DNA from: Ostreococcus lucimarinus
Taxonomy: Eukaryota
Assembly (NCBI GenBank): GCA_000092065.1
Contig: CP000593.1
DNA: 64,000 bases
Direction: 5' to 3' (one strand)
Below, one piece after another: positions 37,944 through 43,209 of the stretch (its first letter is position 1; every line of letters starts with the position of its first letter). The translations under genes and the position numbers were made by a program. The notes under the pieces were generated by a model. That model searched no databases and was not told where the DNA came from. It saw only the letters and a list, made by a program, of their open reading frames with translations.

Positions 37944-39248
37944 ATGGCGACGGTCGAACCGGAGACGAAGCGATTGAAGACGGAGGATGGGGAGAAGGAA
38001 AACGTCGCGCTCAACACGGGGAACGTGGGGAAGGCGCGGGTGAAGAGCTTGATGTATAGGTATTATAAACAATTTTACCCGGCGGATCTGTTGTTCAAGT
38101 GGTTGGCGCACGGAAACGACGAACGACACGCGAGGGCGGAGAAGACGTACCCGAGCCGGCGGGAGTTTTGTTTCGTGCTGGATAAGGAACAAGAAGAGGG
38201 CGGGGGAGAGATTTTTGCGCGGTATCAGAGTTTCGTGGACGCGAAGGATTTTAAGACAAACGTGGAGCGGAAAAAGCCGGCGCGCATCGAATTCGGGCCG
38301 ATTTGTAACCGCAGACCGTCCGACAGGCACACGGTGGAGTTAAAACCGGAGGAGCGGGAGTTGGTTTTTGATATCGATATGACGGATTACGACGACGTGC
38401 GGACGTGCTGCAAGGAGGCTGGGATCTGTGGAAAGTGCTGGCCGTTGATGACGGTGGCGCTCAAGGTGCTCGACGTCGGCTTGCGCGAGGATTTCGGTTT
38501 CAAGCACTTGTTGTGGGTCTATTCCGGTCGTCGCGGTATTCACTGCTGGATCAGCGATGAGCGCGCGAGAAAGTTGAGCGACGAAGCTCGCTCTGCGGTT
38601 GCCGAGTATTTCGCCGTCGTCAAGGGCGAGGGTCAGGGGCGCCGCGTGTTGTCGTCGACGCCGATGCACCCTTCGGTGAAGCGCGCGTACGACGGCGTCT
38701 TGAAACAATATTGGATCGAGTCGTACTTGCCCACGCAGCGAATTCTCGAGGACAAAACCAAGCTCGAGCAACTCCTCAATCTGATTCCCGACGAAAACAT
38801 TAGAGAGGATCTCGCGTCGGAGTTTGCGACGAGTTCGCTCAACTCGGTCGACCGCTGGGGTGTCATCGAGCGCCGCGTGCAAGACTCTTTGAAGAAAAAT
38901 AATTACAAGCTTACCGGTGCGCTCGAAAAGATAATCCTCTGGCACATCTACCCTCGAGTCGATATCGAGGTGTCTAGACACATGAATCACTTGTTGAAGG
39001 GTCCGTTTTGCGTTCACCCAAAAACTGGGCGTGTGTGCGTGCCCATGGATCCCGCCACCGCGGATTCCTTCAATCCGGAACTCGTGCCCACCGTCGTCGA
39101 TCTGGATTCCGGTGCGCAAACCTTAGACGGGGCGATCAAAACTTTTAACGACACGTTCTGGAACGCGTGCGCGAGGGAAAACATCGAGCGGCTCACCGCA
39201 AAGACGCGTCAAGCCAAGGCGGAGCAACAGTCTGGGATGGAATTCTAA
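37944..39248 (+). CDS. PRIM1: DNA primase small (catalytic) subunit, PRIM1/Pri1
   Basis: About 434 aa from ATG 37944 (MATVEPETKRLK…). The eukaryotic PriS blocks are FKHLLWVYSGRRGIHCWISDERARKL, ELVFDIDMTDYDD and HLLKGPFCVHPKTGRVCVPMD. The upstream 99 codons of the ORF-track ORF are Arg-rich promoter sequence. Confidence 0.85.
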   Translation: MATVEPETKRLKTEDGEKENVALNTGNVGKARVKSLMYRYYKQFYPADLLFKWLAHGNDERHARAEKTYPSRREFCFVLDKEQEEGGGEIFARYQSFVDAKDFKTNVERKKPARIEFGPICNRRPSDRHTVELKPEERELVFDIDMTDYDDVRTCCKEAGICGKCWPLMTVALKVLDVGLREDFGFKHLLWVYSGRRGIHCWISDERARKLSDEARSAVAEYFAVVKGEGQGRRVLSSTPMHPSVKRAYDGVLKQYWIESYLPTQRILEDKTKLEQLLNLIPDENIREDLASEFATSSLNSVDRWGVIERRVQDSLKKNNYKLTGALEKIILWHIYPRVDIEVSRHMNHLLKGPFCVHPKTGRVCVPMDPATADSFNPELVPTVVDLDSGAQTLDGAIKTFNDTFWNACARENIERLTAKTRQAKAEQQSGMEF

Positions 39249-39308: not shown

Positions 39309-40445
39309 TTATGGCGCGTTTCTCGCGAGCGACCACTTATCGTCGTCGTCGTCGTCGTCTTGGCTCACAGGCGTCAATTCTATCGACATTAAGCGTTCGC
39401 TCGAACTCAACACCTCTTGCCACGTCGGCGGCTTGCTCTTGTCAAAGTACACGTTCTCGACCACGGTTGTGTCCCAACTCTCCCCCGTAGTGCTGTTCCC
39501 AAACTTTCGCACGCTACCATCGGGGGATAACACTTCTCCCCACGTCCGGCTGAACCGTTCGCCATCTTCACCGACGCGCCACGTCTCCCCGCTCTTGCGT
39601 CCGCTGCCAATCTTGCTTCGGCGCTCTTCCCATTTATCGCCCCATCGCATCCCCATGCCGTTCTCCGCCCACTTATCCGTCCACTTCAGCGTCGCGCCCT
39701 CGCCATCGTACTGCTCTCCCCACTTCTCCCACCACGCCTGTCGAACCTCTCGCCCGCTCTTTTCCACCCCTCGCTCGACGGCGCCGTTGGCGTAGTACCG
39801 CTCCCACCACTTCTCCTGCCACTCCTTACTCTGCGCGTCTCGCGCCCACTTATCGGCGCTCCTCTCGATGTGTTCGACGCCCGTAAAATCATCCCGGCAA
39901 TAGATCTCTCGCCACGTCTCCCACCACGTCTCACCCGTGTCGTTAAATCCGCTCTTCTCGAACCCGAGCTCCTTGTAACCGCTAAAATCGCACTTCGCCC
40001 ACCGCGTCTCGCTCGATCCGCTTCGCCCATCCGGGCAATCTCTCTTCGTCGTCCACCACCTCGACTGATACCCACCTTCTCCACGATCGAATCCTCGCTT
40101 TCGCGTCGTCTTCATTCCTCCCTTCTCCTCCACGGACGTCGACGTTTCCCGGTTTCCGCCTCGCGCGCCGTCCTCGCTCGCGCCCGCCGCGCCGTCGTCC
40201 TCGTCGTCCGCGTCCTCGAACGCCTCGTCCTCTTTCGCGATCCCCGTGTCGCGCTGCGGCGGTTTCGCGCGCGTTCGCACGTCTCCTCGCGGTGCGTCGC
40301 CGCCGCAGACGCGTCCGCGGCGCGCGCGCGCGTCGATCGCGCGCGTCGATCGCGCGCCGCGCGATCGCGTCGTCGTCGTCGTCGCGCGTTCACGGCGCGT
40401 CGCCGCGGCGCGCGGAGACGCGCGGCGGAGCGACGCGATCGTCAT
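39309..40445 (-). CDS. Tryptophan-rich repeat protein with a transit-peptide-like N-terminus (plastid-type; ESV1/LESV-like is a speculative assignment)
   Basis: ORF 39309-41168 overlaps the 3' end of the upstream helicase gene, so ATG 40445 is used (MTIASLRRASPRAAATRRERATTTTTRSRGARS…). The C-terminal about 230 aa contain a roughly 14-15-aa periodic motif G-x(3-5)-W-x(2)-K-W-x-E (WWETWREIY, WQEKWWERYY, AWWEKWGEQYDG, KWTDKWAENG, RWGDKWEERR, TWRVGEDG, RTWGEV). It ends in poly-Asp. Confidence 0.55.
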   Translation of the reverse strand: MTIASLRRASPRAAATRRERATTTTTRSRGARSTRAIDARARRGRVCGGDAPRGDVRTRAKPPQRDTGIAKEDEAFEDADDEDDGAAGASEDGARGGNRETSTSVEEKGGMKTTRKRGFDRGEGGYQSRWWTTKRDCPDGRSGSSETRWAKCDFSGYKELGFEKSGFNDTGETWWETWREIYCRDDFTGVEHIERSADKWARDAQSKEWQEKWWERYYANGAVERGVEKSGREVRQAWWEKWGEQYDGEGATLKWTDKWAENGMGMRWGDKWEERRSKIGSGRKSGETWRVGEDGERFSRTWGEVLSPDGSVRKFGNSTTGESWDTTVVENVYFDKSKPPTWQEVLSSSERLMSIELTPVSQDDDDDDDKWSLARNAP

Positions 40446-40639
40446 CTCGTCGCGCGACCGGGTCGCGCGATCGCGGCGCGCCGGGCTGTGCGGACGCGCG
40501 ATCGCGTCATCGTGTCGGTTGGGCGCGCGCGGGCGCCGGCGCGAGACGGATTCGCGGCGCGCCGACGAGGGGACGAAGCGACGAGACGAAGGCGCGGATG
40601 CGGACGAAATCGACGGAATGAGGGAGATGCGCGACAAAA

Positions 40640-43129
40640 CTACTTTCTGCGGTACTTGCTGGCGCTCTTGAACTTGCCGCGGGCGGTCTTGAAGGGCTTG
40701 GCGGGGGCGCCCGGGCTCGCGCCGCGAAATCCTCCGCGGAAATCGGCGCCGCGGCCGGAGGATTGGACGCGCGCGTCGTCGTCGTCGTGGACGTCGGCGC
40801 GCGCGGCGCGCTTGGCCTTGGCCTTGGGATCGCGCGCGTTTTTGACCATGCGGACGACTTTGGTGGCGACGCCGCCGGTCAAGCGGGCCTCGCGTTCGAT
40901 GGCTTTGACGGATTTGACGCCCTTGGTCACGCGAAAGCCGCCTCGAGGGGTGTCGTCGTCGCCGCGCTCCTTTTTGTATAGCGCCTGTTGCGCGAGTTTG
41001 CGTCGCGCGCGCTTGCTGTCGGGTAAACGATCGGGACCGGCCGCTTCCTGTCGGCGCTTGGCGCCCTTGCGGTGAGACTTTCGATCCATCAAGTCCATTT
41101 CGGCTGTTTCCATCGCCTTGAGCGCGTCTTTTTGCGCGTTGCGTTTGTCGCGTTCGCTCTGGAACCATGTCTTCGCCGGTCGCGATTTGATCTCAGCCGC
41201 GTGCTCGAGAATGTTCGAAGCCTTATTTGCCTCCATTTCGGCCTTTTGAAGCTGACGTTCGGTGCGCTCTTCGTAGTTGATTTGCACAATTTGCTCCTCC
41301 ATATCCTCGATTTTCTTGTGCCACTCGGCGACGATGTTCCCGGGCACGATTCGCGCTTTGAGGTTCGCCCCTCGTTTTGCTATGGTTTTGACTAGTTTAC
41401 GATCGGATTCTTCCATGAAGGTCAACGCCGTGCCTTTCTTCCCCGCGCGCGCTGTGCGCCCGACTCGGTGTAAATAGCTCGCCAAAGTCTTCGGCGCGTC
41501 GAACGAAATCACCGCGTCGACGGATGGAATATCCAAGCCTCTGGCGGCGACGTCTGTGGCGATCAAATGCGTGACTGTGCCCGTCCTAAATTCATCGAGC
41601 GCTGCTAAGCGCTGCGTCTGCGTCATGTCCCCGTGTAACTCACCCGCTTTGATGTCGCTTAAACCCATGATGATCTTCAAACGATGCGCCTCTTGCTTGG
41701 TTTGGGAAAATATAATGGTCGACTTGTCGTAAGAACGACTCACAATGGCCATCAAGAACGCCTCTTTCTGAGCACTTTGGTTAGGTTTGAGCTTTAACAC
41801 TTCCTCCACCAACCGCTTGGGCGTCGTGCCGAGCGTGTCCGCGGAAAGCCTCGCCGGATTCTTCATCGAAAGACTCGCCAGCGCCTCGACGCCGGCGGTG
41901 AGCGTGGCGCTGAATAATAACGTTTGGCGCTTCTTCGGGCATTGTCGAACAATTTCTTTGATCTCTTCCAAGAATCCCATCTCCAGCAAACGATCGGCTT
42001 CGTCTAAAATCAACGTCGCGAGATCTTCTAGCCCAAACGAGTGCGTGTTTCGCACGTGGTCGATGACGCGACCGGGCGTCGCCACGACAATTTCGGGTCG
42101 AGTGCGCAGCGCAGCTGCTTGCACGTTCGCCGACAATCCACCGACGACGAGCACGGCTCGAATTGTTGTAAACTGCGCGAGACTTTCCGTCATTTGATGC
42201 ACCTGAACCGCAAGTTCGCGCGTCGGCACCAAGACCAACACGTGCGTCGCCGCCGCCGGCCTCGGTCCTCGATGTAACATCCGCTCCAACTGCGGCAGCA
42301 TAAACGCCGCCGTCTTCCCGCTCCCCGTTACCGCTCGCCCGCAGACGTCGCGACCAGTCATCGCGATCGGAATCACCGCCGCCTGAATCGGTGTCGGTTT
42401 CTTATACCCGAGCGCCTCGCACGCTCGCGTCAGCGGCCGCGACAGGTGCAACTCGTCGAACGCCTTCGCGTCGAACGTCGTGTCCCCTTTCGCCCCCTTG
42501 ACGACCGCGCGCTCTTGAAACCCATCCTCCGACTCGGAATCACTCTCCGACGACGTCGCCGTCGCCGTGGGCGTCTTTGCTTTCTCGTCCTTCGCCGCGT
42601 CTTCCTCGCGCGCCTCGCGCTCTTCCTCGCCTTCGCTCGTCCCATCCTCCTCTTCCTCCTCGCGCTCGCGCTCGCGCTCGCGCTCGCTCTCGCTCTCGTC
42701 GTCGTCATCATCACCGCTCTCGCTCTCCTCACCACTCTCGCTGTCTCCACTGACGCTCGCGTCGTCATCCGTCTCGCCGTCGTCCTCGCCCGGCAGCGGC
42801 GCGTCCTCCGAGTCGCTCCCGTACTCGTCCTCCGACCCACCCGCGCTCGCGCTCCCTCGCCTCCCGCGCCCTCTCGCCCGCGCGATCTTCTCGTCCACGC
42901 TCGTCATCTTGTTCGCTCGCAGCTCGCGCGCGCGCGCCTCGCGCGCGTCGCCAAAGTTCCACGCCTCGGTCGCCGCGCGTCCGCCGCCGCCGCCGCCGCG
43001 TCCCTTCGTCGCTCGTCCCGCGCGCGTCCCGCGCCCGTCGTCGTCGTCCGACGCGTCGAACGTGAACGAGGGGTTAAACTCGACGTCGCTCCCGTCCGCG
43101 TCCGCGTCGGCGGTCGACGCGCGCGGCAT
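40640..43129 (-). CDS. DEAD-box ATP-dependent RNA helicase, DDX27/Drs1-like
   Basis: The motifs are Q (FDELHLSRPLTRA…PTPIQ), I (AVTGSGKT), Ia (PTRELA), II (DEAD), III (SAT) and VI (HRVGRTARAG). A long acidic N-terminal region and a basic C-terminal tail flank the core. The ORF opens at 43192 (GTG); the first ATG is at about 43129. Confidence 0.85.
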   Translation of the reverse strand: MPRASTADADADGSDVEFNPSFTFDASDDDDGRGTRAGRATKGRGGGGGGRAATEAWNFGDAREARARELRANKMTSVDEKIARARGRGRRGSASAGGSEDEYGSDSEDAPLPGEDDGETDDDASVSGDSESGEESESGDDDDDESESEREREREREEEEEDGTSEGEEEREAREEDAAKDEKAKTPTATATSSESDSESEDGFQERAVVKGAKGDTTFDAKAFDELHLSRPLTRACEALGYKKPTPIQAAVIPIAMTGRDVCGRAVTGSGKTAAFMLPQLERMLHRGPRPAAATHVLVLVPTRELAVQVHQMTESLAQFTTIRAVLVVGGLSANVQAAALRTRPEIVVATPGRVIDHVRNTHSFGLEDLATLILDEADRLLEMGFLEEIKEIVRQCPKKRQTLLFSATLTAGVEALASLSMKNPARLSADTLGTTPKRLVEEVLKLKPNQSAQKEAFLMAIVSRSYDKSTIIFSQTKQEAHRLKIIMGLSDIKAGELHGDMTQTQRLAALDEFRTGTVTHLIATDVAARGLDIPSVDAVISFDAPKTLASYLHRVGRTARAGKKGTALTFMEESDRKLVKTIAKRGANLKARIVPGNIVAEWHKKIEDMEEQIVQINYEERTERQLQKAEMEANKASNILEHAAEIKSRPAKTWFQSERDKRNAQKDALKAMETAEMDLMDRKSHRKGAKRRQEAAGPDRLPDSKRARRKLAQQALYKKERGDDDTPRGGFRVTKGVKSVKAIEREARLTGGVATKVVRMVKNARDPKAKAKRAARADVHDDDDARVQSSGRGADFRGGFRGASPGAPAKPFKTARGKFKSASKYRRK

Positions 43130-43209
43130 TTCGAGTTTTCGTCGCGTCGCCAAGTGTCGCGAGGGGGCGGCGCTCGCGGCGCGTCGCGACACTTCGCGAC
43201 GCGGCCGCG

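Follow-up and report, generated by a model that had tools for sequence, protein, structure and literature searches.

The window, meaning the whole stretch of 64,000 nucleotides that was analysed, is gene-dense and has a GC content of about 60%. On the minus strand, positions 39309-40445 translate as an intact, intron-free reading frame of 378 codons followed by a stop codon. The genes and reading frames at this locus are the following.

37944-39248, plus strand: DNA primase small subunit gene (PF01896), convergent with the ESV1 gene
39309-40445, minus strand: complete single-exon coding sequence of the EARLY STARVATION 1 (ESV1) orthologue, 378 amino acids, TAA stop at 39309-39311, colinear with 39 homologues in the alignment
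39870-41075, plus strand: Arg/Ala-rich reading frame of 401 amino acids, antisense to the ESV1 N-terminus and the helicase C-terminus, with no family matches
40640-43192, minus strand: DEAD-box helicase gene with a long acidic N-terminal extension, upstream of the ESV1 gene

The ATG at 40445 is the first in-frame ATG past the helicase stop at 40640. The ESV1 reading frame remains open upstream to 41168, but this stretch overlaps the C-terminus of the helicase. The gene model is supported by the metagenome protein P0001, since that protein is 98% identical to the window protein and also has 378 amino acids; it carries a precomputed match to Pfam family PF28232. Lookup of the exact sequence of the window protein returned no record. 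The arrangement of the ESV1 gene with a convergent gene for the DNA primase small subunit is kept on the independent metagenome contig that carries P0001. The primase small subunit encoded in the window has 100% identity to a marine metagenome protein (P0336) and 65% identity to the O. tauri primase. The stop codons of the primase and ESV1 genes are 60 bp apart, a spacing typical of very compact picoalgal genomes. The 401-amino-acid frame on the opposite strand looks like a reading-frame artefact of GC-rich DNA.

A metagenome copy of the gene (L001:525-1661) was compared with 39309-40445 of the window. Six codons differ, all by non-synonymous changes, and the comparison of synonymous with non-synonymous differences (0 against 6) is uninformative. 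Five of the six are clustered at codons 257-263, all of them G-to-T and one causing W259L, and the contig has a coverage of 5.5x. The differences are therefore probably sequencing or assembly errors.

Family membership and parts of the protein

A search of 5.8 billion proteins gave 488 homologues, every one with a precomputed PF28232 match (488/488). Among them are land-plant proteins named "EARLY STARVATION 1, chloroplastic", which cover about 79% of the query at 45-47% identity, with E values of about 1e-65. In pairwise BLASTP the E value was 2e-81 against Malania ESV1 and 2e-42, at 37% identity, against Hevea LESV. When 1.84 billion representatives were searched exhaustively with HMMER, 312 matches were obtained at E up to 1e-3, including the Hevea protein 'LIKE EARLY STARVATION' (40% identity, E 6e-32). 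The homologue in Micromonas pusilla CCMP1545, XP_003061263.1, has about 50% identity to the window ESV1 and is recorded as 'uncharacterized protein'. Taken with the gene density, the GC content and the primase identities, this suggests that the source is a member of the Mamiellophyceae which resembles Ostreococcus but is not O. tauri. Based on the precomputed matches of P0001 and of all 488 homologues, the window protein is very likely a member of PF28232, a family that carries the name LESV in Pfam. A Pfam scan with a library lacking PF28232 found no family for the window protein, a null result without meaning because the genuine ESV1 of Malania also scores nothing there. When the threshold for the window protein was relaxed to E up to 1, the scan gave only a spurious match to DUF1180 on the poly-Asp tract. 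No match to MORN or WW was obtained, in agreement with the sequence-only reading, which had set both aside. A sequence search of the PDB with the window protein gave nothing at E up to 1, and there is therefore no solved structure of a family member.

Two database entries in the P0169 and P0492 clusters are probably due to contamination. One is a 45-amino-acid 'Propionibacteriaceae MAG' protein that falls in the Micromonas ESV1 cluster, with algal or photobiont DNA as the probable source. The other is a LESV-like protein filed under the lichen fungus Acarospora, where the assembly probably contains algal or photobiont sequence.

The protein contains 22 Trp in 378 amino acids (5.8%). From base composition, 2.1% of codons should be TGG, so that the excess has a binomial P of 2e-8. 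In five other proteins of the window, Trp makes up 0.15-2.7% of the residues. The parts of the protein are as follows, all on the minus strand.

40266-40445, minus strand: residues 1-60, disordered N-terminus rich in Arg, Ala, Thr and Ser, putative chloroplast transit peptide by composition
40236-40262, minus strand: residues 62-70, PPQRDTGIA, ESV1-specific N-terminal motif, from alignment conservation
40152-40235, minus strand: residues 71-98, acidic linker KEDEAFEDADDEDDGAAGASEDG..., modelled with low confidence (pLDDT 57-69)
39459-40151, minus strand: residues 99-329, Trp-rich domain with 16 antiparallel beta-strands in the AF2 model, putative glucan-binding sheet of the ESV1/LESV family (PF28232)
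39387-39422, minus strand: residues 342-353, conserved C-terminal helix (DSSP H342-348 and H350-353, pLDDT about 91-95)
39339-39359, minus strand: residues 363-369, poly-Asp tract in a lineage-specific acidic tail, from translation and alignment

The first 60 residues include 17 Arg, 12 Ala and 9 Thr and just four acidic residues. In an alignment of 40 sequences, ranging from prasinophytes (Mamiellophyceae) to angiosperms, the N-terminal sequence is poorly conserved while its composition is similar among the relatives. Composition and homology together point to a plastid presequence and to import into the chloroplast. In the motif that follows, conservation in the same alignment is 90% or higher at P62, P63, R65, T67, G68 and I69. 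The acidic linker varies in both length and sequence among the relatives.

Downstream of the linker Trp is concentrated. Residues 118-345 contain 21 Trp (9.2%) together with 44 Asp/Glu and 38 Lys/Arg, which bears out the earlier description of the C-terminal part, about 230 residues, as dominated by Trp and charged residues. All the motifs quoted in that description were located: WWETWREIY at residues 174-182, WQEKWWERYY at 209-218, AWWEKWGEQYDG at 237-248, KWTDKWAENG at 254-263 and RWGDKWEERR at 267-276. Pairs of the type W-x3-W are found at 174/178, 209/213, 238/242, 255/259 and 268/272. Trp is invariant in the 40-sequence alignment at 19 positions (W130, 149, 174, 175, 178, 209, 213, 214, 238, 239, 242, 255, 259, 268, 272, 289, 302, 324 and 342), 18 of them within residues 99-329 and the last, W342, in the C-terminal helix. 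Invariant columns of Gly, Glu, Asp and Lys are also numerous. At least 90% conservation in both ESV1 groups was found for 19 of the 21 domain Trp, and in a set of 25 LESV-like sequences, 14 of the 21 positions hold Trp in 80% of cases or more. The resemblance to ESV1/LESV had been put forward as a speculative guess, and it was correct: named ESV1 proteins are found at 45-47% identity and PF28232 is assigned to the 98% identical P0001. With an E value of about 1e-65 and 19 invariant Trp, the result is the opposite of missing similarity and unconserved Trp positions.

In the region of the C-terminal helix the conserved columns are W342, S349, L352 and I355. The protein had been said to end in poly-Asp; the tract is indeed near the end, but nine more residues, KWSLARNAP, come after it. 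Among the relatives in the alignment, an acidic tail followed by a 'DK[WF]xL' motif is found only in the Ostreococcus-like P0006 and P0007. No catalytic domain was found in the window protein.

The AF2 model, computed from the 40-sequence alignment, has a mean pLDDT of 80.6 and a pTM of 0.72, with 239 residues at a pLDDT of at least 90. It comprises 16 antiparallel strands, E99-106 through E323-329, followed by the helix 342-353. The long beta-sheet for which an AlphaFold model was to be inspected is thus present in the prediction, at residues 99-329. Means of pLDDT over blocks of 10 residues are 91-97 over residues 101-330. The 98 residues that precede the sheet are below 70, and most of residues 2-67 are below 50 and look disordered. 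All 20 Trp of residues 99-329 lie within modelled strands. The proposed periodicity of 14-15 amino acids is right as a strand period, because strand plus turn in the model measures 14.9 +/- 1.5 amino acids; it does not hold for the autocorrelation of Trp alone, which peaks at lags of 4, 13 and 30.

When the modelled strands are placed in a crude hairpin register, the Trp form two columns four residues apart. From sequence and strand register, the side chains of a W-x3-W pair would be on the same face, about 13-14 A apart, and the extra Trp of each WW doublet would be expected to face the opposite side of the sheet. The fold described for Arabidopsis ESV1 and LESV (AtESV1 and AtLESV) is a planar, twisted sheet with a length of about 70 A, in which 16 antiparallel strands carry aromatic stripes at a spacing of about 14 A; a conserved C-terminal helix lies against one of its faces (PMC10219597; bioRxiv 10.1101/2023.06.09.544376). 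The modelled architecture matches this published fold, and the two-column register is consistent with the published stripes. The helix at 342-353 corresponds to the one that packs on one sheet face in AtESV1/AtLESV (bioRxiv 10.1101/2023.06.09.544376).

Long spurious reading frames do occur in the window, the 401-amino-acid antisense frame at 39870-41075 (+) being an example, and the gene could on that account be taken for a chance reading frame or a compositional artefact of GC-rich DNA. The probability of this is negligible in view of the 488 homologues and the strong conservation across green plants, the high-confidence AF2 model, the synteny kept on the metagenome contig and the Trp excess.

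ESV1 and LESV in green algae

A neighbour-joining tree was constructed from 60 domain sequences with 300 bootstraps. An ESV1 clade, made up of 17 Mamiellophyceae sequences including that of the window, Cymbomonas and 17 streptophyte ESV1 sequences, had a bootstrap value of 100%, as had the Mamiellophyceae clade. The streptophyte LESV clade (97%) and a clade of the long form from core chlorophytes, the chlorophyte LESV-like sequences (98%), were separate. Domain identity of the window protein averages 48% with streptophyte ESV1 and 39-40% with the LESV groups.

The two family members are also distinguished by motifs. The window protein has all three of the WW doublets, formed by W175, W214 and W239. 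Among ESV1 sequences 94-100% have Trp at these positions, compared with 0-16% of the LESV-like ones. In a census of homologues covering at least 180 domain positions, the WWW signature was found in 184 proteins. PPxRDTGI occurs in 148 of these 184, compared with none of the 142 proteins without WW doublets. Conversely, the LESV N-terminal motif xFWxWxPP is found in 43 of the 142 non-WW proteins and in no ESV1-type protein. The window protein has neither xFWxWxPP nor a helical N-terminus of the LESV type, and the nine-residue insertion of the LESV sheet is absent, with seven residues instead of 16 between residues 229 and 236. The sequence from Cymbomonas tetramitiformis (P0550, KAK3249828.1) groups with ESV1, together with Mamiellophyceae at 91% bootstrap, and has only one of the three WW doublets (signature WST), so that membership of the ESV1 clade does not always come with the WW signature.

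By sequence, the window gene is an ESV1 orthologue and not LESV. If it were a LESV orthologue, its product would act early, on the phase transition of amylopectin, and interact with isoamylase. The name of the covering Pfam family fits such an assignment, as do the Trp-rich domain common to both proteins and the match to Hevea LESV at 37% identity and E 2e-42. It is nonetheless very improbable, given the position in the ESV1 clade at 100% bootstrap, the higher identity to ESV1 (48% against 39-40%), the presence of PPxRDTGI and all three of the doublets found in ESV1 only, the absence of the long helical N-terminus, of xFWxWxPP and of the nine-residue insertion, and the existence of a separate LESV-type gene in O. 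tauri and Bathycoccus.

This separate gene encodes a distinct, long PF28232 paralogue, XP_003082922.2 in O. tauri (P0569, 564 amino acids) and CAL6441868.1 in Bathycoccus (P0578). The long paralogue of Mamiellophyceae (P0569, P0578 and P0224) combines the N-terminal motif of LESV, PGSDFWTWTPPE, with the nine-residue sheet insertion, and both family members therefore exist in Mamiellophyceae. The gene is located outside the window; inside the window, tblastn with LESV proteins matches only 39369-40103. The O. tauri protein is labelled 'HAD-like domain' and looks like a misannotated LESV orthologue. Two further sequences, P0183 and P0187, were considered as LESV of Mamiellophyceae and rejected, being of Picochlorum/Chlorella type; the real one is the P0224/P0227 group.

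The occurrence of the ESV1/LESV family in green algae has been published (PMC8343138). Named core-chlorophyte homologues (Picochlorum, Chlorella, Micractinium, Trebouxia, Apatococcus, Volvox, Tetradesmus, Bryopsis and others) are all long and non-WW and are without the LESV insertion. The ESV1 signature was seen in no core chlorophyte among the homologues found. With the window gene as ESV1 and a separate LESV in Mamiellophyceae, the ESV1/LESV duplication would be older than the divergence of prasinophytes and streptophytes. A possible though rather doubtful history is that the duplication preceded the chlorophyte-streptophyte split, that prasinophytes (Mamiellophyceae and Cymbomonas) keep both ESV1 and LESV, and that the core chlorophytes (Trebouxiophyceae, Chlorophyceae and Ulvophyceae), apparently with the long non-WW form only, may have lost ESV1.

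Comparison with land plants and proposed function

Arabidopsis ESV1 (At1g42430) and its land-plant orthologues have the same Trp-rich domain as the window protein (about 47% identity), with WW doublets, and PPxRDTGIA upstream of the sheet. A short disordered N-terminus, the 16-strand sheet with its C-terminal helix and the lack of a catalytic domain are also common to At1g42430 and the window protein. LESV (At3g55760) shares with it the putative glucan-binding beta-sheet domain and the C-terminal helix. In addition LESV has an N-terminal region of roughly 250-300 amino acids, with conserved helices and xFWxWxPP, a nine-residue insertion in the sheet and a single Trp where ESV1 has WW; the window protein has none of these. 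The carbohydrate-binding modules CBM20, CBM45, CBM48 and CBM53 are likewise non-catalytic and recognise alpha-glucans by stacked aromatic side chains.

The window protein differs from land-plant ESV1 in several respects. It is shorter, 378 amino acids compared with about 420-450. In the first hairpin, KTTRKRG stands in the place of streptophyte STWYRESG and a single Trp in that of streptophyte EW...WW; in the alignment the aromatic residues of this hairpin are lost in the Ostreococcus-like clade. Residue 298 (39552-39554 of the window) is Phe, giving GERFSRTWGE instead of GERWSRTWGE, a position with Trp in 88-100% of other ESV1 sequences. The tail is acidic with seven Asp, ...SQDDDDDDDKWSLARNAP, whereas that of land-plant ESV1 is Pro-rich, ERPPGVYP..., a trait on which the definition of ESV1 does not depend. 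The host is also different from the land plants in which ESV1 has been characterised, being a unicellular picoalga, and Ostreococcus has a single starch granule per plastid.

The protein is very probably the ESV1 orthologue of an Ostreococcus-like prasinophyte (Mamiellophyceae) that is imported into the stroma, binds amylopectin through the Trp stripes of its sheet and slows granule degradation. The Arg/Ala/Thr-rich N-terminus would direct the protein to the chloroplast stroma and then be removed. According to the model, residues 99-329 would form one large, open, antiparallel sheet of 16 strands with one face capped by the C-terminal helix. The W-x3-W pairs of neighbouring strands would line up as aromatic stripes flanked by Asp and Glu, and these stripes, as homologues of those in Arabidopsis ESV1, may bind amylopectin double helices that run in parallel. 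In both ESV1 and LESV it is the Trp-rich domain that binds starch, and on its own this domain suffices for localisation to the granule (PMC10219597; bioRxiv 10.1101/2023.06.09.544376). Homology thus makes the window protein a predicted glucan-binding protein. In esv1 mutants starch is degraded too fast at night (PMC13017890; PMC10219597), and ESV1 stabilises the crystalline starch matrix (PMC10219597). By analogy the non-catalytic window protein would stabilise the semi-crystalline starch matrix and limit night-time degradation of the granule by glucan dikinases and amylases. The separate LESV, encoded elsewhere in the genomes of Mamiellophyceae, would promote the initial phase transition, as the published model proposes.

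Pacing of starch degradation is known from land plants only, and the role in a single-granule alga could differ. Instead of pacing degradation, the fold might have been repurposed in picoalgae to bind another polymer or partner, such as when the single granule is partitioned during plastid division, or in connection with pyrenoid-associated starch. The one granule per plastid in Ostreococcus would suit this, and so would the lineage-specific loss of aromatic residues in the first hairpin, W298F and the poly-Asp tail in place of the Pro-rich one. These changes are, however, confined to regions in which the family as a whole shows little conservation: the first hairpin, residue 298 and the tail all fall in regions that PMC10219597 calls poorly conserved, and the C-terminal tail region of ESV1 is described there as poorly conserved and disordered. 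The residues of the putative glucan-binding stripes, 19 Trp and flanking acidic residues, are invariant and the fold is kept, which argues for the same ligand. Repurposing is for these reasons considered improbable, and the ESV1 role described from land plants is preferred.

The window gene is an ordinary, well-supported member of the already known ESV1 family, and no new kind of system is involved. The value of the finding is mainly one of annotation: the labels 'hypothetical' or 'uncharacterized', which this gene and its nearest relatives bear in the records, can be replaced confidently by ESV1 and LESV. The non-enzymatic machinery of the Arabidopsis type for starch crystallisation and stabilisation exists as a gene pair in some of the smallest free-living eukaryotes. 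If the history outlined above is true, the Ostreococcus-type protein, whose first hairpin is trimmed and whose tail is poly-Asp, would represent a minimal form of ESV1, and the algae would offer a tractable single-granule system in which the 'stabilise' and 'nucleate' roles of ESV1 and LESV could be separated. One granule per plastid combined with homologous recombination could make functional tests simple in such algae, and the gene is perhaps useful as a minimal ESV1 in a single-granule alga.
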